From NCBI GenBank assembly GCA_965261255.1, contig CBDHCQ010000004.1:78597-142596 (forward strand): 64,000 nucleotides of DNA. The letters are read 5' to 3'. Below the pieces are notes generated by a model, which made no database searches, was not told the origin of the DNA, and saw only the letters and a program-made list of their open reading frames with translations. Shown piece after piece: positions 2,975 through 51,415 of the stretch. This stretch comes from Rhodothermales bacterium (GTDB taxonomy: Bacteria > Bacteroidota > Rhodothermia > Rhodothermales > Bin80). The position numbers and the translations under genes were made by a program. How positions within the stretch are numbered: position 1 is the first letter of the stretch; every line of letters starts with the position of its first letter.

Positions 2975-3859
2975 CTACGGCGTGAGCGCCATCGCTCCAA
3001 GCACGCCAGCCCTGCTCCCAAGCCCAGGTGGGACGATGTACTGGTCAATCTGACGTATCAGTTCCTTCGCCCTCACATACCCATTCAAGTGTGACTGGAC
3101 ACGCGTACGAATGGCAGGAAATAAATGCTCCTGCTGCATCACTCCACCGCCCATAATGACTCGTTCAGGTGAGAGGATCAGGATCATATTGGTTACCGCA
3201 AACGAGAGATAGTGCGCCACAAAAGACCATGCAATATGGTCCGGTGGAAGGGTCTCTGCAGGAGTCCCCCAATGTGCCTGGATCGCCGGCCCGGCCACCA
3301 TCCCCTCCAGGCAGGCGCCATGAAAGGGACAATTCCCCTTGTAATCATCTCCCTCAGCACGCGGCAAAAAAAGATGTCCCATCTCTGGATGTACCAGCCC
3401 ATGAACAGGCTGACCATTTACTAGCGCTCCACCCCCGACACCCGTCCCAATCGTAAGATAGAGAAGGTTCTGCGTCCCCTGACCCGCTCCCCATAAGTAT
3501 TCGCCGACGGCAGCACCATTGACATCCGTATCAAAGGCAACAGGTAATTGCAGGTTACGCGCTACAAAGCCGGCTAAGTCCGTGTTTCGCCATCCAGGCT
3601 TCGGAGTGCTTGTGATGAAGCCATAAGTATTAGAGGTTGGCCGAACATCTGCAGGACCGAATGTAGCGATTCCGATAGCGTCTGGTAAACGGGGTTGCGA
3701 ACGAAAGAAATCCAAGGTGCGACCGAGTGTTTCCCGGGGGGTCGTAGTGGGGAATCGCTCCAACGAGAGAATGTTGTCCGGCGGGTATCCGACAGCACAG
3801 ACAAACTTCGTGCCTCCCGCTTCTATGCCTCCCAGGAGAGGGGCTGATGTATGCGTCAA
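2975..3859 (-). CDS. ROK-family sugar kinase (fructokinase-like)
   Basis: The N-terminus LGGIEAGGTKFVCAVG matches the ROK fructokinase ATP-binding start. A Zn/Cys motif CPFHGACLEG and the glycine-rich LTIGTGVGGG are present. Confidence 0.9.
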   Translation of the reverse strand: MTHTSAPLLGGIEAGGTKFVCAVGYPPDNILSLERFPTTTPRETLGRTLDFFRSQPRLPDAIGIATFGPADVRPTSNTYGFITSTPKPGWRNTDLAGFVARNLQLPVAFDTDVNGAAVGEYLWGAGQGTQNLLYLTIGTGVGGGALVNGQPVHGLVHPEMGHLFLPRAEGDDYKGNCPFHGACLEGMVAGPAIQAHWGTPAETLPPDHIAWSFVAHYLSFAVTNMILILSPERVIMGGGVMQQEHLFPAIRTRVQSHLNGYVRAKELIRQIDQYIVPPGLGSRAGVLGAMALTP

Positions 3860-4227
3860 AACGGCAAAAAATCAATGGGTTATCTACGTGAGTACCCGAT
3901 CGCGGTGAAATAGGTCATGTGATCAGAGGCATTTGCATGGGTAACCTGTGTCCGGGAGTACGGGACCTGCACGGACAGAGACGCATCATTGGTCACCTGA
4001 TGGCCCGTAAAGAAGATATAACGGCAGCTATGCAAAAGGGACTCACATTTCGTGGGGCGATAAGATTCTCTGATGGAATTGTCTGCCCCAGCAACGGGTA
4101 AGAGGCTGTAGTGCCATCCTTCGGGGCGGAACTTGTTGGTGGGGCAGCAAAGAATGTCCTAGCACCCGAGAACACTCCTATCCCGACCACAAATGGGATG
4201 GTGAACCAGAGGGCAATGTGCGTGTGC

Positions 4228-11316: not shown

Positions 11317-11903
11317 GTGACAAGTTGGATCAAACGCCGTTTTTACGCATCTTGGCAAATGCTGTGCCAAGATGGCATTCGCACACGAAAACGTTTGAAA
11401 GATCAAGTTTAGTTTGCGACTAGAAGGCTAGGGCCGGCTCGGGCACACAAAAATACGCACAATGAGCTCTTATCCACGAACCTAGCCGTCATTTTCTCTG
11501 TTATTTTGACAGGTCGGGTGTGACAAATTAGGTTAAATTTTCAAGCGTCGTAGCGGCATTTTCGTTCTTTGCATTTATATGTCGTGGGGCAATCGAGGCC
11601 AGGATGGTCAGCCAATCACCCTCCATGCTCTGGGGCACAATCTGGCGATCGAGGACGGAATCATTCGCTCAAGCTGTCATGTACGACTAATCGGCAACCC
11701 ATGGGCCAAGCCACGCCGCCGAGCCACGAATAGCCCACTGGGCTAATCGCCTAGGGTGCAGTTACGTGGACCTGATTCACAATGCGGTTCCAACAGGCAC
11801 CTTGTACTGCACAGTGGCGTTAGCCCGTGACGCCGGCGCTACCGCCCAGCACCCTCGAGTGAAGCGCTCCTGTCCTGCAAGGAAGGCGCAGGATCCTTTG
11901 GAC

Positions 11904-12810
11904 ATGGCGCCGCGTTGTTTTGGATATAACACTGTGTTTTCCATGTCTATTGCCGTCATATTGATCTTCGTATTCCAGGTCGCAGCAGGACAGACCTTCG
12001 ACATTCAGGGACACAGAGGTGCCCGGGGCCTTTTGCCAGAAAATTCCACTGCCGGCTTCCTGCACGCGGTAGATCTCGGTGTATCTACGCTTGAGATAGA
12101 TGTAGTTGTCGCCGGTGACTCTACGGTTGTTGTATCACACGAGCCCTGGATGCTGGAGACGATCTGCAGCGACACAGACGGCCGCGCCATAACCGATGGC
12201 GAGAGCTACAACATCTTCCGAATGTCCTATGAAGCCGTGGCCCAGTACGACTGTGGCAAGCGCGGGCACCCCGGCTTTCCGCGTCAGGAAAAGCAGTCCG
12301 CTGTAAAGCCACGACTTTCGGACGTGATCAACGCCGTTGAGTCTCACACGGCGGAGCGCGGGATGGACCAGCTTCGCTACAACATTGAAATCAAGTCACG
12401 CGAGGAATGGGACGACATCTATTCGCCGCCTCCGCCGGTTTTCGTGCGGCTTGTGCACGAGGTAGTAGTCCGCACAGGTATCATGGACCGAACTACAATC
12501 CAGTCGTTTGACCTTCGTTCACTTCCAGGCCGCGCACAGAATCAGCGCGGCCTGGGAGCTTGCGGTGCTTGTGCATTCAGAAACGGACCTGCCGGCACTG
12601 CTCCGCCGGCTGGAATTCACTCCCCAGGTTTTTTCTCCAAATTTTCGGATAGTTGATGAATCACTGGTGCAAGCTGCGCGCGACCTCGGAATGCGTATCA
12701 TACCCTGGACCGTAAATGAGGTCTCGGACATGAAGCGAATCATGGCGATGGGGGTAGACGGTCTCATCACGGACTATCCGGATCTTGCGCTGACTCTATC
12801 CGACATGTAA
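11904..12810 (+). pseudogene. glycerophosphodiester phosphodiesterase (GDPD), frameshifted
   Basis: FDIQGHRGARGLLPENSTAGF...LEIDVVVAGDSTVVVSHEPW in frame 0, then WTVNEVSDMKRIMAMGVDGLITDYPD in frame +1. The frames switch at about 12522-12526 (IQSFDLRSL | QAAHRISAAWELAVLV). Possible starts are 11904 or 11943. Confidence 0.75.
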
Positions 12811-12908: not shown

Positions 12909-14862
12909 CATTGTAGTGGATTTTTTTGCTGAGATTCCGTGCCCCCTATTTTCAAGGGATTCAAAAAGAGCTGTTTTAGGTTGTATTCTTACACTTCGGC
13001 GTTCTCTTTTGTAGGGCGTTTTGCCTTGATTCGCTGCGTATTCCGCCCCAGTTTGAGCCCCATTGCCTGAAAGACTTGACGCTGGAATGGCTTGAGATCC
13101 TAGTCTTGTTTGAGCGGGATCGCGTGCGTCTTATTTTGAGGAAACACGGTCGTCACGCGCTGGTGCTCGTTGAGTTTGACCTTGAGGGTGGCCCAGCTCT
13201 TGTGGATCTGTATTGCGCACAACCTGCTTCGAATCAGATGCACGACATGGAAGGCCAGGATGGACAGGAACAGATGGGCTTCAATCTGCTCATCCTTGCT
13301 GTGATAGATTGGGCGGAAGCCCAAGTCGGATTTCATCGTGCGGTAGGAGTGTTCAATTTCTCCCAACTGCCAGTATGTTCGCGCAAGATACTCACAGGAC
13401 CACTTCGCATGACTGGTACGCAGGACGTATCCGCCAAAGGCTTCGGTGCAGGCATCGTAGGCCGACCGACGCGTCAGGAGAATCTTTTCGGCGTGCGCTG
13501 GCTGGCCCTTTTTCTTCACAACTTTGACCTCGTAGTGATATCCGACCTGTTTGTACTTCTCCATGAGCCGTCCCTCCTTTCGCTCAATCACCGCATACGT
13601 CTTCGGACGTCGGGGCATCGTGAGCTCCTCGTTCAAGTGTGCAATGGCCGCTTCAAATTGGGCGCGCTTCGTGCTGATGATTTGATCGCTGACCGCCTGC
13701 CGGACCTCACTGTGTAGATACACCCGCCGCTCTCCATCATTTCCCCCCAAGCTTCCAGGCACGTACATACACCTCGTGAGTGGATTGAAAAACTTGATCC
13801 GGTTCCCGGTCCAGAACCGGGGGCGTCTTCGTGCGCTCTACACAGATCCAGTTCAATCCTTCTTCCCTCAAATACGCCAAATACGCCTCGGTTGCGATGC
13901 CCGCATCCATAATGACCGTTGGCTGGTCCCCGTTCAACTGTTCGATGGCCCTGCACAAAGTCTCCGGCTCACTCGCATTGCCGGGGAGAATTTCTGCGGT
14001 GCGCGGGAACCCCGAGGCATCAAGCGTCATCGCCAGCGTGACCAGCGGACAATCGTTGCGCTTGTCCTTGCTGCGCCCATAGCGCAAGCGCGCGCCTTTC
14101 TTGCGACCTGTGTAGTAGGTGTTGGTCAGATCATAGAACACGATCGTTTCCGTAAAACCCAATAAGGCCTGGGTGTTGCCAAAGAGTTCGTCAATAATCG
14201 TCTTCCGGTGCGCGTAGAGCCCAGCAGCAATGCGGTAGAGCGTCCGGTCACAGGGACGTTTGGCTTGGAGTAATTCCAGTATACAGGACCGTTCGCACAT
14301 CCAGTCGTAGGTTTGCCGCTCGCTCCCGGGAGAGAGCATTCGTCCCACGACCAGGGCGGTGGCCCAGTGAATCTGATCCCGGTTGAAGTTCAAGGTTTGC
14401 AGGATCTGGGTAAACCCCAGCAGATCCAGCGCTTTGAGCGCCACGCGCTCGCTGCCAATGGTTCGCGTGTCGGGATGATGGATTTCATTGGTGAGAATGG
14501 CATCCCGGTCATCCCGTGGATCATGGACATCATAGCCCTTGCGTTTGAGCTTCTCCATGATGTCCTGACTGGCCTGGTGAAGGACTTCATCTTCAAACGG
14601 CAGGCGCGCATGTCCGTGCAAGCCGTCGCGCACGAGTTGCATGAGCGTCGGCCATTGTTCTTTGGGGAGGTTGAAGTCTTTGCCGAGGTTGAGGAGGGTT
14701 CGTTGCCGGGGATTTCCGTGGACGCGATAGGATTCAACAGTGGAGTAGTAGACGACCTTTTTGCCGGATTTGAGGGTACGGGGTTTGGCATAGACATACA
14801 TGGTCGGGGTGGGGTAATTGGGGGTTGAACGGTGGGGTTGGCGAAAAAATCCCACTACATTG
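12909..14862 (-). mobile_element. IS1634-family-like insertion sequence (about 1.95 kb)
   Basis: Imperfect terminal inverted repeats: cattgtagtggatttttttgc at 12909-12929 versus the reverse complement of gcgaaaaaatcccactacattg at 14841-14862. They enclose the split transposase gene. Confidence 0.65.
13100..14801 (-). pseudogene. IS1634-family (IS4-like DDE) transposase, split by a 1-nt frameshift
   Basis: N-terminal part MYVYAKPRTLKSGKKVVYYSTVESYRVHGNPRQRTLLNLG (start at ATG 14801), C-terminal part ...YWQLGEIEHSYRTMKSDLGFRPIYH. The two ORFs overlap at 13737-13768, and the frame change maps to a C6 homopolymer at 13743-13748. Confidence 0.75.
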
Positions 14863-15008
14863 AGGGGTTTCGGCAAAACCATTCTATAAGGGCGTAATTT
14901 GCCCTAAATAGACCAATGTAACCCCGAAATCGGGGGTTCTTACCCCGAAAAACCCGAAATCAGGCCAAAAACTCAGACAGGATGGAATGGAAATACCGAA
15001 GTCGCGCC

Positions 15009-15397: not shown

Positions 15398-16309
15398 TTA
15401 TCCTCGGATTCGAGGAAGATTATCATGCTGAGTTTTCACAACATTGTCCGTGATCTCTCGCAACTCATCGTCGTCTAAAATACTAAGTTCCCTTGAAGCT
15501 TGAATTGAGCCGATTGCTTGACAGGCAGACCGTAGGCCCGCTCCCTTTCCTAATGGTGTGTTAGGCTTTCTTTCCAATAGCTCGGCCAGACTAAGGATGA
15601 ATGAGCTCCGAATTCTGTGTGAGCCAAGTACCGAATTCCGAGATACGACTAGCATTACCAAATTCTCCCAGTAAGCTTTATTTAATCGTAGAACCTCTCG
15701 GACTTTGCGCATAAGAACATGATCACCCCTTGAAACCTGCCTAACTAGATGTTCTCTCCACCAAGCTCGTGCGAAAGGGCAATCCACATAGACGGATCTA
15801 TTCCCCCGAGCTTCCTGCAAACCACCTAAGCGTCTAAGAATCGTTCGTACTCGACGATCAACCAACTCATTTCGCCTATCCCCCTGTCCCTTGAGGAGTG
15901 TTTTGATGTCCCGTGCACCATTAGAGTCTGGCTTTCCGCTTGCAGCCAAGTAAGAAGCTTGAATCAGGCCACTTTCAATATGACGAAGGGTAACAGTCGC
16001 CCAGAAAGTTGTCCTACACGCAATTCTGGGGGTAATGCTTAACCAAGCATTAAAAAGACTTTGTTCTGTATCTGTGGGAGGCTGCTTGAATTCACTCTCA
16101 GTCAAGGGAGTCGGGAGAAGAGTGATCGTCTTAGAGCCTGGTGTGAACTCCACAGAACTCATGATAAAATCAAGAAACCCCAGATTACTCTGGACTGCCT
16201 TGAGAAGTTCTAACTGTAGTTTGGAACCTTTCTTTTTGAGCAAATCTCTTCGCAGTTTCGAAAATGATTCATCCTGAAATTCTTCATAGCTATTATGTAC
16301 CATGCTCAC
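15398..16309 (-). CDS. hypothetical protein (303 aa), last gene of the five-gene operon
   Basis: Its ATG overlaps the upstream stop (ATGA at 16306-16309). Arg-rich and probably helical. I recognise no family motif. Confidence 0.7.
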   Translation of the reverse strand: MSMVHNSYEEFQDESFSKLRRDLLKKKGSKLQLELLKAVQSNLGFLDFIMSSVEFTPGSKTITLLPTPLTESEFKQPPTDTEQSLFNAWLSITPRIACRTTFWATVTLRHIESGLIQASYLAASGKPDSNGARDIKTLLKGQGDRRNELVDRRVRTILRRLGGLQEARGNRSVYVDCPFARAWWREHLVRQVSRGDHVLMRKVREVLRLNKAYWENLVMLVVSRNSVLGSHRIRSSFILSLAELLERKPNTPLGKGAGLRSACQAIGSIQASRELSILDDDELREITDNVVKTQHDNLPRIRG

Positions 16310-17154
16310 TCATCTTCTGATTGGTCCGGGATATCGTGAGGATACAATTTTGTAGCGACTTCCTCAGGGCGAAAATCAGGCTCGCTCCAGTGAGATAAAT
16401 TCTTCTGTTTTAGATGGTCGGCGAGGATGTCAAGGTTACGAGAGGATGATTCTCCACCATCATCGTCATTTTTAAACTCTCTTTGTAGGAAAGCAAAACA
16501 TGCCGTGACTATATTGGTCATTATGTGTGATCGTACACTCCCTTTTTTCTGAAGGAAGGAGTGGAGCTTTGGATTAAGACGGACCAAAAACCGAAAATCT
16601 TCTTCAGTCTGTGCACCAACATAAAACTCTCCGGGTCCCAATTCTTGATCAGGGTTTAGGGTTAGTAACTGCAGTATTGAGGAGGATCCAAACCGAATCA
16701 AGGTTCCGAGTGCAAGTCGACTTCCTTTCCTCAATGTTATCGTCTGGTTGTCCCAGATTTGATGGACACCGTCTTTTTTAGCATTCAGTCTGAGATCACG
16801 GTCGGGAACAGTACTGACTATCATTGGCGTGAGAATTGGGGGTTCGCCGAGATCGTCGCTATTCCAAGAGATACAATGTTCCTCGGTTTTCGATGTATAT
16901 GTTTTTCGATATGAGGATTTGGGGGATGAAACGGCGCAAACGTAGATCGCTTTGTTTTCTTGCAGTAAACGCGAAATCAGCGGAGCTCCTTCAATCCGAT
17001 GAGTGATAATGAACGAACACTTATCGTCGCCAGGCACACATTCGATGATGTATTTGCCTTTTGGAAAGGAGATATTACCAGACTCCAGTATTGGAAATCG
17101 TGGTGACCGAATAGCATTTGACGGCTCTGTCGAAGAAACGGAGAACTGGTACAT
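16306..17154 (-). CDS. hypothetical protein (282 aa), fourth gene of the operon
   Basis: Starts 25 nt after the GHKL gene stop. Acidic C-terminal tail (DIPDQSEDE). I recognise no family motif. Confidence 0.7.
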   Translation of the reverse strand: MYQFSVSSTEPSNAIRSPRFPILESGNISFPKGKYIIECVPGDDKCSFIITHRIEGAPLISRLLQENKAIYVCAVSSPKSSYRKTYTSKTEEHCISWNSDDLGEPPILTPMIVSTVPDRDLRLNAKKDGVHQIWDNQTITLRKGSRLALGTLIRFGSSSILQLLTLNPDQELGPGEFYVGAQTEEDFRFLVRLNPKLHSFLQKKGSVRSHIMTNIVTACFAFLQREFKNDDDGGESSSRNLDILADHLKQKNLSHWSEPDFRPEEVATKLYPHDIPDQSEDE

Positions 17155-17179
17155 TCTAACTATCTACCATCGAGCGCCA

Positions 17180-19114
17180 CTACCCCTTGTATATGTCTAC
17201 TCGGAGCGTTGGCTCGTGATCAGGAGGCAATATAAGGTTGTGGGGAAGAGAGTATTCTAAAACAATATCTAAGCTGTCACCAGATTCAATATTGCCAAGG
17301 TGGACGCCCGTAATCTGTTCATTTTCCTTAATGAGTTTCCTCTTATCAGCAGGTTTGTCGTCTATACGTACCTTTCTGAGAATGAGGGCTTTGGTATCAT
17401 TTCTCGAACGAAGGTCACACGTTGCATCTATATTTTGGTCCACGCACAAACGAAGTTGAGCGTCACTCAAACTACTGTGACATTCCACAACGACCCTCTG
17501 ACTATTTGTGTTAACTGCCACCGATGTTGCCGTAAACACAGGACCCAATTGGGGTTGGGGACGTGACTTAGTCGATTTTGAGGATTTCTTTTTGCCTTTT
17601 TTATGCGAGGGGCCTGGGCCCACATCTGATTCCGCGTAAGATTTGGAAGGAATGCGTTTGTCAATTGCCTCAGGACTTCCCCAGAAAGATGGGTAATTCG
17701 GGCCAGTTTCTCCTTCCCGTCCGAAATCTAGCGCAAGAAAGTCATCTGGGTTATATGACTCAGAGCTTATTTTCGGAGCTTTAGCTTTAAGCCATTCTTT
17801 AATTTTGCCAAAAGCGTTCCCCAATTCGCGCGCTTTGTCTTTCGATAGTCGTTGCTTGGGATGTAGTTCGTTGTGCAGCGGACCTTCGGCATTGCGCACA
17901 AACTCATGTAGCTTCCCGCCCGACTTTGAATTGAGCAATAAAACGGCATGAAAAGGTCGACGATCTGAAAATGCATACCGAAGCCTAGGAAGGTTGTTTG
18001 CGTCGGAAATCCACATGCCATTCCTATAAAGGTCAACTTGAGTCACGCCAGAAGCTGTAGAACCATACCGGACCTCTACGTCTCCAAGCTCTGTTGGTAT
18101 CGTGTGCTTCTCACCTTTTTGGAATGTGACATAAGCGGAATAGGCTCGGGATCCGCTGATGAAAGCCCCCGGCTTTTTTCTTTTATTTCCCCTTTCCTCC
18201 TCCAATACCTCTCTAAGTATTACGCGATCCAATATCAGCAGATCACCGGCATTATGCTTAAAGCGTAGATCTTCAAATTCAACAATGAGACGACCTTCAT
18301 GAATCGCTGGGAAGAAGTTGCGCGCAGCAGATTTAAAAACAAGATCCGAAAGTTTTTCTGGAGACTCTTTGAAATAATTGAATGCAGGGACAATTATGGC
18401 CGTCCCATGTCTCCAATTTTGCGTGATCCAATCCACATCCTGTGCGATGAGGAGAGGCAAATGCCGGTCGGTAGCACAGATGTGATGCCCTTTTTCCATT
18501 TTGTGAACCAAGAACCCATCCCCGGATCTTGGTTGTTCGTCGCCGTCTCGGATGCTCGAAGCGAGAACAGCGTGGCCTGAACCTATCCTTTCTCCCTTGA
18601 AGTTAACTCCACCATAGAGGATATAACGCAAGTTGGATGCAGGTATGATGGTCGAATGGCCATTACCATAGGTACCCATTGCATCTCTACCCTTAACGCT
18701 GATACCATCACCGAGTAAAGCCCTCATCCGAGAATCATCTAGGCCAATACCATTATCAAGGACTGACAAGACGTCCTGCTCACTCTGCCCTAGTGCTTTC
18801 CGTATGACCTCGACTACACGAGAAGCCTGGCTGCTAAGCTTTCCTCCTACACTTTTGTGAGTCTCCACAGCACATTCGAAAGTATCCTTGTATTCCTGAA
18901 TGCCAGGAATTCCTTCATTCTTACAGCGAGTAAGACGAAATCTTATTTTGGCCGACTTAACGCCTGCTTCGATGGCTGCATCAAGAGAATTCTGCACTAA
19001 CTCTCGAACGATTGCCGAGGGTCGGAGGTCACTGAATCCAGAGATTCCAGACGGGGTAAATCCCCTGGAAGATCCAGGAAAAAACCGTAGCTTCGGTAGA
19101 GCATTATTGGTCAT
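17180..19114 (-). CDS. GHKL-superfamily ATPase (Bergerat fold), 644 aa, with a long non-catalytic C-terminal region
   Basis: N-box ELVQNSLDA (aa 38-46), G1 box LDNGIGLD (aa 119-126), G2 box GTYGNGHS (aa 147-154). Lys/Ser-rich linker PSHKKGKKKSSKSTKSRPQPQ. The start overlaps the desulfurase stop by 11 nt. Confidence 0.85.
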   Translation of the reverse strand: MTNNALPKLRFFPGSSRGFTPSGISGFSDLRPSAIVRELVQNSLDAAIEAGVKSAKIRFRLTRCKNEGIPGIQEYKDTFECAVETHKSVGGKLSSQASRVVEVIRKALGQSEQDVLSVLDNGIGLDDSRMRALLGDGISVKGRDAMGTYGNGHSTIIPASNLRYILYGGVNFKGERIGSGHAVLASSIRDGDEQPRSGDGFLVHKMEKGHHICATDRHLPLLIAQDVDWITQNWRHGTAIIVPAFNYFKESPEKLSDLVFKSAARNFFPAIHEGRLIVEFEDLRFKHNAGDLLILDRVILREVLEEERGNKRKKPGAFISGSRAYSAYVTFQKGEKHTIPTELGDVEVRYGSTASGVTQVDLYRNGMWISDANNLPRLRYAFSDRRPFHAVLLLNSKSGGKLHEFVRNAEGPLHNELHPKQRLSKDKARELGNAFGKIKEWLKAKAPKISSESYNPDDFLALDFGREGETGPNYPSFWGSPEAIDKRIPSKSYAESDVGPGPSHKKGKKKSSKSTKSRPQPQLGPVFTATSVAVNTNSQRVVVECHSSLSDAQLRLCVDQNIDATCDLRSRNDTKALILRKVRIDDKPADKRKLIKENEQITGVHLGNIESGDSLDIVLEYSLPHNLILPPDHEPTLRVDIYKG

Positions 19115-20276
19115 GGACCATAAAGTTTATGCGGTTAATTTCAGAGAAAGCGGCAATCGCAACATCTATTTCTTCATCGCTGGTAAATCGACCCAAACTT
19201 ACACGAAATCCCGATTCAGCGACCTCTGGCTTTAGGCCCAGTGCGAGTAAGACCCTTGATGGCCGCGTGCTTCCTGACGAACAAGCAGCCCCCGTAGATA
19301 TAGCTAATTTATCTGAAACCGTTTCAATTACCTGGTGAGCGAGGATCCCAGGAAAACTAAGACTCAGATTCCCGGCCACACGATGATTGGGATGACCAAA
19401 AAGTCGGATACTGGAACAGATCTGCTGAAGCCCGTCTCGGAGACGCAAAGTAAGCCGTAACATTCGGGCCGAATCCTGAGGCCATTCATTTGCGGCTATC
19501 TGGCATGCTTTTCCAAAGCCAGCAACCAAACCGACAGGAATGGTACCAGGCCTTAGGCCATTCTCCTGTCCGCCTCCAGTAAAGATAGGTTCTATTGGCG
19601 TACCGCTTCGGACAAATAGTGCCCCGATCCCTTTCGGGCCATATACCTTGTGAGCGGAAAGGCTAAGCATGTCAACACCCCACGAATCAATATCAATATT
19701 GATTCGCCCGGCTGCTTGTGTCGCGTCCGTATGAAATAACGTATTATTAGCACGACACAGAGCGCCGATGTCACTCAGTGGCTGAATGACACCGATCTCG
19801 TTATTTACCGCCATGATCGTGACTAAGGCAGTACGTTCGCTCAAAGCACGTTCTAAATCGGCGAGGTTAACCAGTCCATCTTTATCTACAGGCAACACGG
19901 TAATTTCAAATCCCATGTGTCCCAAGTCGTGAACTGTATCCAAGACAGCCGAATGTTCCGTGGTGATGGTAACAAGCTGATCTCTATGACTGTTCCTGAA
20001 GGCTTTTGCAATACCACGTATGGCCAAGTTACAAGACTCGGTAGCTCCCGAAGTAAAAATAATCTCTTCATCGTCCGCTCCGATAAAATCTGCGATTTGC
20101 CCACGTGCTAACTGTACTGCGTCAAAAGCTTCCCAGCCGTATGCATGGTCTATTGAGTGTGAATTCCCAAAGCTAATCTCGAAATAAGGCCGGACCGCTT
20201 CCAGTACACGGGGATCAATGGGGGTAGTCGCTTGGTAGTCTAAATACACCTGACGTGATGCCGCGTGCTGAATCAT
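19104..20276 (-). CDS. NifS/IscS-type cysteine desulfurase (DndA/SspA-like by context)
   Basis: YLDYQATTPIDPRVLEAV, FTSGATESCNLAIRG, PLP-lysine motif SAHKVYGPKGIGALFVR, catalytic Cys loop STGAACSSGS. The ATG at 20276 forms an ATGA overlap with the upstream stop. The ORF track's TTG at 20285 is an alternative start. Confidence 0.93.
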   Translation of the reverse strand: MIQHAASRQVYLDYQATTPIDPRVLEAVRPYFEISFGNSHSIDHAYGWEAFDAVQLARGQIADFIGADDEEIIFTSGATESCNLAIRGIAKAFRNSHRDQLVTITTEHSAVLDTVHDLGHMGFEITVLPVDKDGLVNLADLERALSERTALVTIMAVNNEIGVIQPLSDIGALCRANNTLFHTDATQAAGRINIDIDSWGVDMLSLSAHKVYGPKGIGALFVRSGTPIEPIFTGGGQENGLRPGTIPVGLVAGFGKACQIAANEWPQDSARMLRLTLRLRDGLQQICSSIRLFGHPNHRVAGNLSLSFPGILAHQVIETVSDKLAISTGAACSSGSTRPSRVLLALGLKPEVAESGFRVSLGRFTSDEEIDVAIAAFSEINRINFMVHDQ

Positions 20277-21628
20277 TCGGTACAATCACAGGGAAGTAAA
20301 GTGCTGGAGTATTTTTTTAGATTTGGTTCATCAGCTGTTGATAAGAGCCTGTAAGAAAAATCAGTTTCTGTACCGAAGAAGCCAATGACGGTATTCGCTA
20401 GATTACTCTTGATTTTTCGTTTTTCGGCCACCAGGTCTCGGCCATACTTTTCTTCCATCTTGATCCACCAAGCTATATCAGAGGGAGTTCCGAGAAGTGT
20501 TCCAAATCCGGGCACTTTGTCATTTTTCTCTTTCTCCATACTCTCACGAACATTCCGTAAGTTTGAAACACCTTTTAAAAAACAATAGACGCAGTTTGAA
20601 AGACTTCCTTGTTGGGGTAGCGAAAGGTCCCAAGGTTGCTGATCCCAAAAAGCATTTACATTCTTTCGGGTAATTCCCAGATCTGCCAAGGGCATATAGA
20701 CATGCTCTCCGGTATATCCTGAAGCCCCCGGACCAGAGTTTCTGGCGAAAACGCGGCGAACCCGAAGTTGCTCATCGCCCCTAAGTCCCACAAATGCAAT
20801 ATACTCAACTCCATCTTTTCCGAACAAAGTCTGTTTTTCGGATGTCTTGGCTGCTAGTTTAGAATTTTCAAATGGTCGCCAAGAGGAGGAATAATCAATG
20901 TATCTTTGTTCTGGACGGAAATATGGTCGAGACAAAACAAAAGCTTTTTTTTTCGCGAAAATACTTTTCGGAACTCCGCCACGATGCCGTAGATGACGAC
21001 GATACATTGAATCAAGATCTATCCTAGAACGATTCCCATAGTGGCCCAGCCGTGGGATTGATTCCCGTCCGACCAACCAGTCTTTCAAGAACATGCGTGT
21101 TGTTTCCAATTTCATATTTGCAGTGCAAATCCGAGAGAACTGGTTTGGAACGTAGCCTGACCAAGAAAGAAGCTCTTCAAATACTTCTCCGCGCCAGTGG
21201 AATCCATCTTGATTCTGGCTTGAACGTGGACGCTCGTTCACAATACGGTAGGTCGGCAGGCGAGTCCATTCGCCATTTCGGGCATCTTCGTAAGTTTGAA
21301 ACTCAATCCAAAAAAACGGTATCCCGTACCGAGTTGAGGCATCCTTGCAGTCTCTTGCAAATCGGTATGTTTCCGGGTGTTCAGAAGATGTATTGTTAAA
21401 AATAATAACATCACCCCGATCTTGATCTAAGATCTTATTCGCCAGAAGCGTAAAAAGTAGCATTCCGCTGGTACGACCACCTGAAAACTTCACGATGTGA
21501 GGCAGATCCTGATGGTGTTTGGCACGATACCGGAGAAGGTGCATATTCGAACCTCCAACAGAATTCCGGGATTGGCCTCGGGTTTGAATTACAAGGTGAG
21601 GTACGGAACGCAATGGTCTAGAGAGCAT
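20273..21628 (-). CDS. PAPS-reductase-family PP-loop ATP pyrophosphatase (DndC/SspD-like by context)
   Basis: PP-loop KFSGGRTSGMLL (nt 21467-21484). Cys motifs SNCVYCFLKG and C-terminal LLPCDCTE. First gene of the operon. An alternative start is the ATG at 21544 (MHLLRYRAKHH). Confidence 0.85.
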   Translation of the reverse strand: MLSRPLRSVPHLVIQTRGQSRNSVGGSNMHLLRYRAKHHQDLPHIVKFSGGRTSGMLLFTLLANKILDQDRGDVIIFNNTSSEHPETYRFARDCKDASTRYGIPFFWIEFQTYEDARNGEWTRLPTYRIVNERPRSSQNQDGFHWRGEVFEELLSWSGYVPNQFSRICTANMKLETTRMFLKDWLVGRESIPRLGHYGNRSRIDLDSMYRRHLRHRGGVPKSIFAKKKAFVLSRPYFRPEQRYIDYSSSWRPFENSKLAAKTSEKQTLFGKDGVEYIAFVGLRGDEQLRVRRVFARNSGPGASGYTGEHVYMPLADLGITRKNVNAFWDQQPWDLSLPQQGSLSNCVYCFLKGVSNLRNVRESMEKEKNDKVPGFGTLLGTPSDIAWWIKMEEKYGRDLVAEKRKIKSNLANTVIGFFGTETDFSYRLLSTADEPNLKKYSSTLLPCDCTE

Positions 21629-22077: not shown

Positions 22078-22464
22078 CTACTGCCACTCTTCCACTTTCG
22101 TTATCGTGACTTCCTCACCATCAATGGAGCCATGAAATGACAATCTCACATCCAAACGTTTGAACTTCTGCAGAAAATCCTGAAAGGATAGCTCGAGAGA
22201 GAGTTTCTTTAGAGGTATCGGTTTGCCCTCCAGACGGGCATCATTCATGTTCCGGCCGCCTTGGCCCTCAAAAATGAATACTGATAGAGACGCACTCTTT
22301 TCCACCCGATAGTACTGAATCCCACACACCACATCGTCTTCACCGAGTTTGCCTTCCTTCTGAAGCCACGACCTAATGTCTTCTTTGACATAATCATCCG
22401 CAGCGACGGTTCCTTTCCAGTCATCGTACTGCACGTTGGCTACAAATCCTTCTGTGCATTCCAT
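22078..22464 (-). CDS. hypothetical small acidic protein (128 aa)
   Basis: Clean ORF with an ATG and no competing long ORF. Same strand as the five-gene operon and 450 nt upstream of it. No recognisable motif. Confidence 0.45.
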   Translation of the reverse strand: MECTEGFVANVQYDDWKGTVAADDYVKEDIRSWLQKEGKLGEDDVVCGIQYYRVEKSASLSVFIFEGQGGRNMNDARLEGKPIPLKKLSLELSFQDFLQKFKRLDVRLSFHGSIDGEEVTITKVEEWQ

Positions 22465-23159
22465 AATAATTCAGTATTTCTGAGCTAGTCGGACGCCCGT
22501 GAACGTGTAGTCGCCCTTAATTGTTTCTTTGGTCACGGATATCCCGGTAGCATTTTAAGGGTAATGCCAAAAAGCGAATGAACGAGAATACTGATATTTG
22601 GCGATTCGACGCCAGCGTAGTCTGAGTTTGCATTCGTTTGGCGTGTCAATTTAGGAGTTGAGCGAGGGTTGGAGGCGTATCTGAGCTGGCGCTTTCTGTG
22701 TAAGCCAGTATGGATCTGATTTCGGCCAGGATATCTGGCAGGGCTGGCCTTCGTTCGGATATATTTCGGGCCTATTTGGCGGGGCTGAACCTAGTAGGAA
22801 CACTCCCCCGGAGGCGAGTCAATAGCGGGCGGTGCTGGCACTGCAGTCCGCTACCAAACCCGCTTACGCTGTAGCAGCAAAGGGGGGAGACTTCACTGCC
22901 ATCTCCAACGCTGGCATGTGTTGGTCGGGTGAGAAAATTCCTGGGGTGGGCCCCTGAGCCCCGCTCGATCGTGTTCAAGAGGTATTACCATCCCGACTAC
23001 ACCGTGACCCTCCGAGATGAGTACTGAAATTCATCGCGGCCCAGACCCTCGTGTCTAGCGAACATCCATACCGGATCCTAGAAGGGTCGCCCACGTGGTC
23101 TCGATCCAAGTGACAACTACGGCTAGAGTTGGGTCTATAACCAGGGGGGACTAGACCGC

Positions 23160-23987
23160 TTGGTCCAATCCGCTTCTTCGAGAATTGACTGCCGTACGCG
23201 CAAACGAAGCGGACGCAGATGTGGTGTACACGAACCGGCATGTCTCCATGGATGGCGGATTCTCTTGGACAGACCGCGAGACCCCCGATTCATTCCAGTT
23301 TCGGAAGCGAGACCGGGTGGTTTCCCACCCCTAGGATCCCTCGATCATTTTCGTATGCATGTCGGGCGGCCTCGCCCGGCGTGACGAGTACCTGCAGCAC
23401 CACACGTACCTCTGACTACGGCTATTGCAAGGACCTGCTGGTATTCCCACAGGACCCGTAACGGATATGGATGGGAACCGACAAAGGGTTACTGAGTCTT
23501 TGGATGCAGGAGAGACATGGAGCAGGCAAAATCGCGGGCTGCCGAACGTTCCCATCACACGAATCACCACCTCGCATGACCGGGAGGAGCTACCGGTGGT
23601 CACTCCCGGTCGCGGACTGTTCGTCGTAGATGCGAGCGAAGTGGAAGGCATCATGCCCCCAGACCGGGTCAGCATCGAAGAGGCAGGCGTGTCGGTGCCC
23701 CGCGAGATACCGACACGCCTGTCGTACTACCCGAATCCTTTCGCAAGTTCGACGTCCTTGCAATTCACGACTCAGCAGTCGGCAACGGTGCGCCTGGAAG
23801 TGTTTGAGGTGCTGGGGAGAAGGATCAAAACCGTTGTTGACCAGCGCTACATTAGGGGCGAGCACCTAGTTCGGTGGAACGGCGGCGCCTTGTCGGCGGA
23901 GTGTACCTTGTGCGGATGGAAGTAGACGGCCGACAAGCAGAAGTGAGAAAGATGGTGCGGCGGAGGGGATATATCACCCTTGAATAG
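23160..23987 (+). pseudogene. decayed BNR-repeat protein with T9SS C-terminal sorting domain
   Basis: BNR-like SxDxGxxW motifs occur in different frames: VSMDGGFSWTD around 23240-23275 and SLDAGETWS around 23495-23520. The T9SS tail YYPNPFASSTSLQF...VRLEVFEVLGRRI has a further frameshift before GGVYLVRMEVDGRQAEVRKMV, ending at the TAG at 23985-23987. Confidence 0.55.
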
Positions 23988-24960
23988 GCAGCAAATCTTG
24001 ATGGACTTGTGCCTAGTGAGCGAGAATACTATACTAGTAGAATGCATGAGTTGTCTATCGTGGGGGTCGCCAATAACACCAACAAAATGAACCCCATAAT
24101 GGGGAATTACAAATTAGACTAGTTATTTAGCCAGAGAAAAAGTGACTCCGCCTGGCTAACATGATACAAGACGTCTAGAATTAATAGCACCGCTGATCAA
24201 ACAGGCCGTAGAATGGGGATTGGCATTAAAGCATAAGACCGACGTTCCTGGCTTCACATTGTTACTCCGGCCCTTTTGGTTGGAGATGCTTTCCAGGAAG
24301 TATCCTGCCGACAAGGCGCGTGCCTTATGTTTCAGCCATCTATACGGAACAGTTACGGACTATTCTAACGCGATTCTGAGGCTGATCGAAGATTTTTACG
24401 GAAGCGTTTCATTCGGCCACTCCGGTCTGTCATGGAGACGTGCACCAAGTGCCATTGCATTTCAAAAGGCATGAAGAGTCGCAAGACCATCTGCCACGAC
24501 TTCATTGCGATCAGCCATACGGCGGAGATATACAACTTGTGGTCCAGGGAATACAGCCTAAGACAAAGAAGCAACATACCATCCATGGTAGAAGCGTCAA
24601 AGGAACGTTTAGAGCGTCTTATGTCATCACCCCGAGGAAAAGAAGTAGAGCTTTCCGCGCTTAATCCCGCCCCCGTGAAAAATCTGAAAGAACGATTCAA
24701 GACATTTCCATGGCCCTTTGCCTGGGTGAATCCAAACTCAATGAAGGACAAGAGCATTGCATCCATTTTTGAGGATGCGGGCATGCAGTGGTGTGGGTAA
24801 GCCAAGAGTCCTTCGGGGGAATAGGTCCGTCCAATTGGCATTGGCTGGGGCCTAGCGGTCCGTTGATGGAGATACAACTTAGCATGAATAAAAAATAATT
24901 ATAGCACATATTACCCATTAAATAACAGAAATAGAATACAAGTAACGAAAAAATACTTAA

Positions 24961-26122
24961 GGAAACTCTGATTTATGTTGGCGAAACTCACTATGTTACG
25001 ACATCCAGATATCAATGATCAACGTGCCATGAGACAACTCACTTTCGAGGACGTCACCTACCTCAACCGTTCGCGCAAGACGCGCAGGCAGCGTTTTCTG
25101 GAAAGGATGGATCGTGTTCTGCCATGGGATACCTTCCTGGCCATACTGAAGCCGTACTACCCCAAAGGCGAAAGGGGGCGTCCTCCAATTCCCTTGGAGA
25201 CGATGCTGCGTATTTACTTTATGCAGCAGTGGTTCGATTTGTCAGACCCGGCAGCGGAAGACGCGGTCCATGATATTTTTCCGATTCGGATGTTTGCGAA
25301 GGTGCAACCGGGCTATGCGCCGGATGAGACGACGATCTGCAAGTTCCGGCACTGGCTGGAGGAGCATGGACTGACGAAGCAGTTATTACGGGTCAGCAGT
25401 CGGCATCTCGAGAAGCACAAGATCCTGGTGCGAGAAGGCACGATCGTGGATGCCACCATTATTGCGGCGCCATCGTCAACCAAGAACAAGGAGCGCAAGC
25501 GCGATCCAGAGATGGCCTCCACGAAGAAGGGCAACACCTGGCATTTCGGTATGAAGGCGCATGTGGGTACAGATACGCAAGGGTTGGTGCATACGGTGGA
25601 GACGAGCGCAGCCAATGTGCATGACTCGGAGATGATGTCGGCGTGTCTGCACGGTGAGGAGGAGGTGATCTACGGGGACAAGGGCTATGTGAGCGAAGCC
25701 GGAAAGACCCAAGCGGAAGCCTGCGGGGTGACTTGGCGTGTATTGCGCAAGGCCACCCGAAAGCGCAAGCTCAACTGCGCGGACCAATCCTTCAACCGCA
25801 AGAGTAGTCGGACCCGGGCCAGAGTCGAACATGTCTTTGGCGTGATCAAGCACCAGTGGGGCTTCCGCAAGGTTCGCTACCGAGGGTTGGAGAAGAACAC
25901 AGCCCAACTGTACACGCTCTTTGCGCTTGCCAACTTCCATATGGCCGGCGACCGATTACTGGCCTTACAGGGATAGGTATGCCCTGTAAGCACAGATAGG
26001 GTACTTTGGGCCTTCTTCCCGAACTGTTTTACCAGAATTCAGACCAAAATCGCACATCAGAGGCACCACTAAACCCATTTTGGACTGGATTTGCAAATAA
26101 CATCGCGTTGATCAGACCTTCC
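24961..26122 (+). mobile_element. IS5-family insertion sequence (1162 bp) with 4-bp TTAA target duplication
   Basis: The left end ggaaactctgattta and the reverse complement of the right end ggaaggtctgatcaa match at about 12 of the first 17 positions. TTAA lies at 24957-24960 and again at 26123-26126. Confidence 0.8.
25029..25976 (+). CDS. IS5-family DDE transposase
   Basis: MRQLTFEDVTYLNRSRKTRRQRFLERMDRVLPW...GRPPIPLETMLRIYFMQQWFDLSD...IVDATIIAAPSS...YGDKGY. Intact frame. Start at ATG 25029. Confidence 0.92.
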   Translation: MRQLTFEDVTYLNRSRKTRRQRFLERMDRVLPWDTFLAILKPYYPKGERGRPPIPLETMLRIYFMQQWFDLSDPAAEDAVHDIFPIRMFAKVQPGYAPDETTICKFRHWLEEHGLTKQLLRVSSRHLEKHKILVREGTIVDATIIAAPSSTKNKERKRDPEMASTKKGNTWHFGMKAHVGTDTQGLVHTVETSAANVHDSEMMSACLHGEEEVIYGDKGYVSEAGKTQAEACGVTWRVLRKATRKRKLNCADQSFNRKSSRTRARVEHVFGVIKHQWGFRKVRYRGLEKNTAQLYTLFALANFHMAGDRLLALQG

Positions 26123-43787: not shown

Positions 43788-43861
<74 letters not shown>

Positions 43862-51342: not shown

Positions 51343-51415
51343 TGCCCTGTAGCTCAATTGGCAGAGCGCCTGGCTCTGGACCAGGAGGTTCCAGGTTCGA
51401 ATCCTGGCGGGGCAA
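51343..51415 (+). tRNA. tRNA-Gln (anticodon CTG)
   Basis: Acceptor TGCCCTG/CGGGGCA (one G-U pair), D-arm AGCTCAATTGGCAGAGC, anticodon stem CCTGG/CCAGG with loop CTCTGGA, T-arm CCAGG-TTCGAAT-CCTGG. Confidence 0.9.

Follow-up and report, generated by a model that had tools for sequence, protein, structure and literature searches.

A five-gene operon on the minus strand of a 64,000-nucleotide (nt) stretch of DNA from a Rhodothermales bacterium (contig CBDHCQ010000004.1, positions 78,597 to 142,596; the whole stretch is referred to as the window) is probably, to judge from sequence comparisons, a phosphorothioate-type DNA modification module with an architecture not described before. The operon encodes a PP-loop ATP pyrophosphatase of the 3′-phosphoadenosine-5′-phosphosulfate (PAPS) reductase superfamily, a cysteine desulfurase, a GHKL ATPase and two proteins termed B and C, in that order (Table 1). 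Relatives were surveyed in one genome per GTDB species by scanning with the GHKL family, and the best 80 of 177 relatives were kept. The same genes lie in the same order in 62 of these 80 species-representative genomes, which places the five-gene arrangement far beyond chance.

The PP-loop enzyme and the cysteine desulfurase

The PP-loop enzyme contained an SGGRTS loop, a GLRGDE-x-x-R motif, a CxxC pair (C346/C349) and a C-terminal CDC (C447/C449). The SGGRxS loop and six Cys residues, including those of the CxxC and the CDC, were invariant across the family, so that the SGGRTS, CxxC and CDC motifs named in an earlier reading of the same DNA (the original prediction) were all recovered. DndC is an iron-sulfur (Fe-S)-dependent sulfurtransferase, and by analogy with it the six invariant Cys would fit an enzyme of this type.

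Against Pfam PAPS_reduct, the window enzyme scored 18.1 bits (cut-off 22.5; E = 0.003) over residues 45–97 only, and 16 of 20 members of the PP-loop family were matched, the best at 8e-4. PAPS_reduct was the sole PP-loop family found by the Pfam scan of these 20 members; the tRNA-thiolation families (TtuA/Ncs6/TtcA, ThiI and MnmA) gave no match at E ≤ 1. Assimilatory CysH, the PAPS or adenosine-5′-phosphosulfate (APS) reductase, fitted no better, with PAPS_reduct below its cut-off and with GHKL, B, C and defence genes as neighbours rather than cys genes. Affinity to either group, which the original prediction had named as grounds against a role in DNA, was thus not seen.

Among the PADLOC hidden Markov models (HMMs), SspD (3.7e-8) and BrxP (8e-5, to the PP-loop part of BrxP) matched the window enzyme. 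Across the 20 members, SspD matched all 20 (best 2.5e-10), BrxP 19 and DndC one (2e-3). The SspD model was also matched at 4e-13 by an unrelated PAPS-reductase-like gene of 278 amino acids (aa) on a Bosea sp. ANAM02 plasmid (L091, 7120–9295), and the match is therefore taken at the level of the superfamily, not as SspD membership. The Bosea gene sits between those for thymidylate synthase (thyA) and dihydrofolate reductase (folA), in a strain isolated from the sponge Callyspongia. An insertion of ~160 aa and a C-terminal extension in the PP-loop enzyme were both absent from the SspD model. A search for homologs returned 1244 proteins, none functionally named (the two with a name were 'hypothetical protein'), of which the top 120 were 58–85% identical; the enzymes of the 80 related genomes were 47–71% identical to that of the window.

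The desulfurase carried the SAHK lysine and GAACSSG cysteine motifs, which were invariant across its family, and matched Pfam Aminotran_5 (1.6e-77) and the PADLOC models SspA (7e-143) and DndA (1.7e-141). NCBIfam scores were 430 bits for IscS (equivalog cut-off 643) and 398 bits for DndA TIGR03235 (cut-off 480). By these comparisons it is an ordinary enzyme of the IscS/NifS class, equally close to DndA and SspA. Because it was found in 67 of the 80 related loci and is missing from the others, the desulfurase is dispensable; in known systems IscS substitutes for DndA or SspA, where these are dispensable (PMC12914056). The pairing of a NifS/IscS-type desulfurase with a PAPS-reductase-like PP-loop enzyme, as originally predicted, agrees with the HMM scans, though the similarity to SspD and BrxP is weak.

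The GHKL ATPase and proteins B and C

Bergerat-fold motifs I (ExxxNxxD: E38, N42, D45), II (D120-x-G-x-G) and III (G147-x-x-G-x-G) were present in the GHKL protein, and E38, N42, D45, D120, G122, G124, G147, G150 and G152 were invariant in 23 sequences. Pfam HATPase_c was matched by 19 of the 23 family members (best 4e-6), which upholds the original assignment as a GHKL ATPase. A profile of the family gave weak N-terminal matches only (MutL, Hsp90, MORC) in the PDB, and no domain was recognisable in the C-terminal region by PDB profile search or Pfam. In the PDB, neither the sequences of the four non-desulfurase proteins nor the PP-loop and GHKL family profiles retrieved anything significant. 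In 2.9 million viral contigs there was no GHKL relative and one weak, partial PP-loop match only.

Structures of proteins B and C were modelled with AlphaFold2 from homolog alignments. The model of protein B (predicted local distance difference test, pLDDT, 93.5) contained two beta-sandwich domains and a C-terminal helical domain. Its best PDB match was FN3-like at 8e-3, with none at E ≤ 0.001 and no catalytic fold recognised. Among 1.84 billion proteins, protein B was represented by 254 representative clusters. Protein C, rich in invariant Arg, Trp and Cys, was modelled as all-helical (pLDDT 90.8, predicted template modelling score 0.88) and had no PDB match at E ≤ 0.001 (best E 1.8). The window copy matched Pfam DUF6339 at 2.2e-4, below the cut-off, and precomputed matches to this family (PF19866) are recorded for most of the protein C homologs listed. 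The fold searches recommended for the two proteins in the original prediction thus yielded confident models and no solved structural relative; no nuclease, nickase or known DNA-binding fold was found in either model by PDB fold search. Fusions of the B and C genes occur in at least two lineages (P0387 and P0496), so that the two proteins most likely act together.

Relation to PDC-M33

The GHKL ATPase, B and C of the window matched the PADLOC models PDC-M33A, PDC-M33B and PDC-M33C (1.5e-31, 1.9e-7 and 2.9e-3, respectively) in the same order and at similar sizes, where a true PDC-M33 member scored 1e-209, 1e-81 and 2e-94. On HMM comparison the window trio is a distant relative of PDC-M33, and proteins B and C, earlier called orphans, belong to the PDC-M33B and PDC-M33C/DUF6339 families. 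PDC-M33 is a three-gene 'phage defence candidate' of PADLOC with 98 RefSeq instances, defined by being found embedded in loci of BREX, DISARM and type I restriction-modification systems; no paper in the literature searched mentions DUF6339 or PDC-M33.

True PDC-M33 relatives of the trio (GHKL ~630 aa, B ~285 aa, DUF6339 ~250 aa) lie in defence islands on plasmids of Priestia, Arthrobacter, Paenarthrobacter, Ligilactobacillus and Deinococcus. Unlike the window operon they lack PP-loop and desulfurase genes, have an open reading frame (ORF) of 62–80 aa immediately upstream, and stand beside Dcm-type or type I restriction-modification genes or Shedu. A Dcm cytosine methyltransferase lay within a few kb of PDC-M33 in four of six inspected plasmid loci, with Vsr and/or a restriction endonuclease, and a Shedu nuclease lay nearby in two loci (examples inspected: L088, L089, L092 and L095, on Deinococcus, Priestia, Arthrobacter and Paenarthrobacter plasmids). 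The trio might therefore work with other DNA-modifying enzymes, and since true PDC-M33 trios lack any sulfur enzyme, an independent function of the trio is conceivable.

Conserved core and distribution

Across the 80 loci, 62 contained all five genes, 12 lacked the desulfurase only, five were short through contig ends or gene decay, and one held the trio alone. Three arrangements were seen among metagenome loci anchored on the PP-loop gene: PP-loop–desulfurase–GHKL–B–C, PP-loop–GHKL–B–C, and GHKL–B–C–PP-loop with or without the desulfurase. The four genes PP-loop, GHKL, B and C were found together in 74 of the 80 genome loci and are taken as the obligate core because they are kept through the permuted orders, whether or not the desulfurase is present. 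The PP-loop gene adjoined GHKL–B–C in 78 of the 80 genome loci and, in a reverse scan of metagenome contigs anchored on the PP-loop gene, in 50 of 64; 12 of the remainder were uninformative (contig ends or short contigs), and just two loci, the most distant ones (L150 and L151, 36% identity), seemed to be without the trio. Pairwise identities among the five genes were correlated (Spearman 0.70–0.83), a sign of co-inheritance.

All 80 module-bearing genomes were metagenome-assembled genomes (MAGs), from more than 10 phyla; the taxa included Dehalococcoidia, Acidobacteriota, Latescibacterota, Alpha- and Gammaproteobacteria, Longimicrobiales, Spirochaetia, Binatia, Verrucomicrobiae and Thermodesulfobacteriota. 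Several carried sponge-derived names (Porifericomitales, Poriferihabitaceae, Porisulfidus), two of which also appear in genome notes on sponges with associated metagenome sequences; for the other module-bearing MAGs, habitat was read from bin and sample names only. The lower GC content of the operon (see below) and the patchy distribution among phyla are consistent with horizontal transfer, and cross-phylum identity of 47–71% together with the sponge-derived names suggests horizontal spread within holobiont communities. One Longimicrobiales locus (L038, 14468–21869) contained a standard five-gene module followed by a second, much more divergent copy with PP-loop, GHKL and B genes, three DUF6339 paralogs and no desulfurase.

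Companion modules in related loci

In 33 of the 80 loci the operon included a DUF262 partner of ~600 aa, in which a GmrSD_N (DUF262) domain is combined with a DGQQR motif; its gene lay after C or separated the GHKL gene from the sulfur genes. Its identities correlated with those of the core genes (0.62–0.73). These partners matched the HEC-05 and GmrSD models (HEC-05 down to 1e-21) much better than SspE, which reached no more than 1e-3, and a DUF1524 domain was not detected in them.

A Pbe cassette lay directly 3′ of the operon on the same strand in 23 of the 80 loci, and also in L007. It consisted of PbeA (PADLOC 3e-154), a small ORF, a 748-aa SMC-like protein with a Walker A motif and a protein of ~165 aa; the published PbeB has 66 aa, PbeC is SMC-like and PbeD has 152 aa, and the cassette is read as PbeABCD because of the PbeA match and the fit of ORF sizes and features. 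The identity correlation was 0.87 between PbeA and the PbeC-like protein and 0.07–0.37 between PbeA and the core, the same pattern as in the published co-evolution of DndCD with PbeAC (rho 0.107).

The DUF262 and Pbe sets did not overlap in any of the 80 loci; one or the other effector module was present in 56 and none in 21. DndB-family genes with a DGQHR motif (PF14072 2e-30; PADLOC DndB down to 9e-19) were found in seven of the 80 loci, directly upstream and on the same strand in five, and PF14072 was the commonest family among the 127 nearest flanking ORFs. DUF262 effectors, PbeABCD and DndB are known companions of Ssp or Dnd phosphorothioation, and of all the observations these companions say most about function: a single conserved core combined with two interchangeable effectors is how a modification module with alternative readers is laid out. 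The neighbourhood survey advised in the original prediction thus gave a conserved core with DUF262, Pbe and DndB companions, and these, with the HMM scans, support the predicted non-canonical DNA sulfur modification or defence module.

Two further proteins accompany the Pbe cassette. One of ~650 aa, with an RNA-polymerase alpha C-terminal domain and sigma-70 region 4, is usual directly before PbeA (L019 13706–15661, L028 13822–15936, L051, L053, L055, L007 18052–20025 and 15 more loci), and one of ~500 aa with a weak Methyltransf_23 match is often found ahead of the ~650-aa protein or of the cassette. No PADLOC model matched either; both are possibly additional, as yet undescribed parts of this Pbe variant.

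A role outside DNA, in RNA or tRNA thiolation or with a sulfur metabolite, the defence neighbours then being coincidental, is very improbable. The presence, in 56 of 80 loci, of DUF262 or Pbe genes within the operon, the kinship of the trio with a defence candidate embedded in restriction-modification and BREX loci, the patchy, horizontally transferred distribution with its atypical GC content and the failure of every tRNA-thiolation family to match all speak against it, although a PP-loop enzyme and a desulfurase are also the core of tRNA thiolation (PMC12914056) and many genes flanking the operon in relatives are housekeeping genes.

How the work is divided within the five genes can be read in another way, which we consider possible but unlikely. 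In a split like that of Tdp, the PP-loop enzyme and the desulfurase would write the phosphorothioate alone, GHKL–B–C would be an effector or sensor directed against unmodified DNA, and the five genes would form a complete defence system to which GmrSD or Pbe adds extra layers. PDC-M33 trios do occur on their own in defence islands and have been put forward as a candidate for defence, no other effector is present in 21 of the 80 loci, in the window or in its nearest relative (L096), GHKL domains control nucleases in other defence systems (PMC12137116), and tdpC alone is reported to be sufficient for synthesis in the Tdp system (PMC12914056). However, no nuclease or other effector fold was seen in B or C and the C-terminal region of the GHKL protein has no recognisable domain; a dedicated and mutually exclusive effector module in 56 loci is what would be expected of a writer with interchangeable readers; and the PP-loop gene is hardly ever seen apart from the trio, permuted gene orders included.

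Comparison with known phosphorothioation systems

Four enzymatic routes to DNA phosphorothioation have been named: Dnd, Ssp, Tdp and BREX type 4. Ssp resembles the window operon in having a dedicated IscS-type desulfurase and a PP-loop enzyme of the PAPS-reductase superfamily, and in encoding an ATPase plus one or two accessory proteins within a single operon; its SspE (DUF262) may be likened to the DGQQR-bearing DUF262 partner of 33 of the 80 relatives, and SspD was the best PADLOC match of the PP-loop enzyme. It differs in that SspB and SspC are replaced here by the GHKL ATPase, the beta-sandwich protein B and the DUF6339 protein C, and in that the PP-loop enzyme, at ~450 aa, has a large insertion unlike SspD. 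SspB (DUF4007) and SspC (DUF6079) gave no PADLOC, Pfam or NCBIfam match in the five proteins at E ≤ 0.1, and SspE (DUF262 + DUF1524) was not found in the window by tblastn. A canonical SspABCD set, which by the original prediction would have made the operon a known system, was not seen.

Dnd shares with the window and its relatives a desulfurase as close to DndA as to SspA, DndB-family genes upstream in some loci and PbeABCD downstream in 23 of 80, whereas DndD (an SMC-like ABC ATPase), DndE and DndFGH are lacking here and the DndC HMM matched one of 20 PP-loop members weakly. BREX type 4, neither Dnd nor Ssp, likewise uses a PAPS-reductase-type enzyme, and BrxP was the second-best PADLOC match of the PP-loop enzyme, but BrxC, PglZ, BrxL and the DUF4007 fusion are absent. 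HMM scans of the operon proteins found no DndB, DndC, DndD, DndE, SspE, BrxC/Z/L or DndFGH, in line with the earlier observation that DndB, DndD, DndE, SspE and DndFGH are missing. Since the defining accessory proteins of Ssp, Dnd and BREX type 4 are absent, the module belongs under none of the three. Tdp (TdpABC) is a further non-Dnd, non-Ssp phosphorothioate system built, like the window operon, on a PAPS-reductase-type enzyme; a generic PAPS-reductase query of the PDB returned no Tdp, Dnd or Ssp chain.

The five-gene module is undescribed in the literature searched. A 2024 reappraisal of the Dnd machinery makes no mention of GHKL or MORC, and the sole defence paper found with both 'phosphorothioat' and 'GHKL' concerned an unrelated Shedu variant. 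The latest search of gene neighbourhoods for further phosphorothioate systems considered only PAPS-reductase genes beside a P-loop NTPase, and would for that reason miss this module.

The distance from known enzymes also bears on the nature of the mark. It is improbable that the sulfur is placed elsewhere than in the backbone, for example in a thiolated nucleobase, with the PP-loop enzyme adenylating a base carbonyl in the manner of tRNA thiolases. The enzyme is only distantly related to SspD and BrxP and barely to DndC, it has the ~160-aa insertion and C-terminal extension relative to the SspD model, and GmrSD-family enzymes typically read modified bases (PMC12137116). Its superfamily is nevertheless PAPS_reduct and not the PP-loop families of the tRNA thiolases, and the companions DndB, PbeABCD and SspE-like DUF262 belong to phosphorothioate systems. 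We know of no system described for thiolated DNA bases. Little probability is likewise given to a thio-base writer joined to GHKL–B–DUF6339 as a modification-agnostic DNA-scanning platform that recruits this or other writers, such as Dcm in the PDC-M33 loci.

Proposed mechanism and significance

For a module that writes phosphorothioates, the following scheme is proposed for substrate, chemistry and division of labour. The desulfurase would take sulfur from L-cysteine as a persulfide, a step left to the housekeeping IscS where the gene is missing. The PP-loop enzyme, probably with an Fe-S cluster on its invariant Cys, would activate a phosphate of the DNA backbone with ATP and exchange a non-bridging oxygen for sulfur. 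A GHKL dimer with B and C, probably as one complex, may clamp DNA by means of ATP and select the target, taking over the part played by DndD/DndE, SspC/SspB or BrxC in the known systems. The mark would, in relatives, label self DNA for the GmrSD/SspE-like DUF262 effector or for PbeABCD. The window copy is read as an orphan modification (epigenetic) module because there is no effector here or in L096.

Several points weigh against the phosphorothioate assignment. The Pfam PAPS_reduct score of the PP-loop enzyme is below the cut-off, and its SspD match is weak and unspecific. Proteins B and C show no nickase or DNA-binding fold, and the role suggested for them comes by analogy only. The window and 21 of the 80 loci have no effector. 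Both GmrSD-type proteins and PbeABCD also occur outside phosphorothioate systems, and 58% of PbeAC pairs have no dndCD nearby. The occurrence of PDC-M33 trios without sulfur enzymes is a further such point.

If it does write phosphorothioates, the module would be a fifth architecture for DNA phosphorothioation. It would show that a GHKL clamp, with two proteins whose folds are novel, can serve the enzyme that inserts the sulfur, and DUF6339 and the PDC-M33 candidate family would gain a function. The wiring to SspE-like or Pbe modules would offer a natural test of the exchange of phosphorothioate 'readers' between 'writers'. The apparent concentration in sponge- and coral-associated MAGs of many phyla points to a defence or epigenetic trait that members of this community share by horizontal transfer.

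Gene junctions, composition and flanking sequence

The five minus-strand ORFs were present as originally predicted, with coordinates given in Table 1.

Table 1. Genes of the operon, listed in the order of transcription; coordinates are those of the window.
Feature	Coordinates	Strand	Remark
PP-loop ATP pyrophosphatase, PAPS-reductase superfamily, 451 aa	20273–21628	-	predicted sulfur-inserting enzyme
Cysteine desulfurase, class-V aminotransferase (IscS/NifS/DndA/SspA type)	19104–20276	-	longest ORF to 20285 = 393 aa
GHKL (Bergerat-fold) ATPase, 644 aa	17180–19114	-	C-terminal ~350 aa uncharacterised
Protein B, 282 aa, beta-sandwich	16306–17154	-	PDC-M33B match, AlphaFold2 model
Protein C, DUF6339, all-helical	15398–16309	-	303 aa from GTG 16309 or 301 aa from ATG 16303

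The ATG of the desulfurase overlapped the TGA of the PP-loop gene in an ATGA at 20276–20273, so that the desulfurase start is most likely the ATG at 20276. By ORF coordinates the desulfurase and GHKL genes overlapped by 11 nt (19104–19114) and the GHKL and B genes were separated by 25 nt (17155–17179); these three junctions were as first described. The B/C junction at 16309–16306, described earlier as ATGA, is GTGA, with an in-frame ATG at 16303, 2 nt past the B stop. A protein C homolog that is 99% identical (P0241) has 301 aa, consistent with a start at this ATG, and the B and C genes are tightly coupled whichever start is used. GC content was 0.45–0.48 in the operon and 0.51–0.55 in both flanks, in agreement with the AT-richness earlier judged by eye. 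A promoter and terminator scan gave nothing above shuffled expectation.

A DDE transposase gene downstream of the operon (13100–14882, minus strand) was split into ORFs 13737–14882 (DDE_Tnp_1) and 13100–13768 and is probably inactivated. A second, unrelated DDE transposase gene upstream (24975–25976, plus strand; DDE_Tnp_1 and DUF772) was intact. The nearest relative of the operon, L096 (GHKL 93% identical), had the same five genes and the same downstream ABC-transporter and HtpG neighbours, and a TonB-dependent receptor with a CarboxypepD_reg domain among its neighbours, without insertion sequences (ISs) and without an effector; the closest GHKL homolog with an organism name was a 'Bacteroidota bacterium' MAG protein. 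The receptor and this homolog would both point to a host within the Bacteroidota. As L096 has neither transposase, both are recent insertions, and as it has the same operon in the same place without IS or effector, the IS elements are incidental and the operon is stand-alone in this lineage. The original description of an IS-flanked segment thus holds for the transposase genes on both sides, while the L096 operon shows them to be incidental. Removal of an effector by IS insertion was considered and rejected: tblastn found no remnants of GmrSD, PbeA, PbeC, PbeD, Sig650, U500 or DndB in the 64-kb window, and L096 likewise has no effector.

An ORF of 128 aa upstream (22078–22464, minus strand) was rejected as part of the system, having no family match and no conservation in the 87 loci surveyed; L096 has an ORF of 130 aa (3828–4220) at the equivalent position. 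Between the operon and the intact transposase, at 22500–24900, the window contained only short overlapping ORFs (≤170 aa) on both strands at a GC content of ~0.54, and this may be degraded sequence. A glycerophosphodiester phosphodiesterase (GDPD) gene (11766–12810, plus strand) was apparently broken into overlapping ORFs 11766–12656 and 12508–12810 and is possibly a frameshifted pseudogene beside the IS; L096 has a CSD/DUF3825 gene where the window has the GDPD region. Above the gathering score, Rfam matched only two tRNA genes in the window (43788–43861, minus strand; 51343–51415, plus strand).

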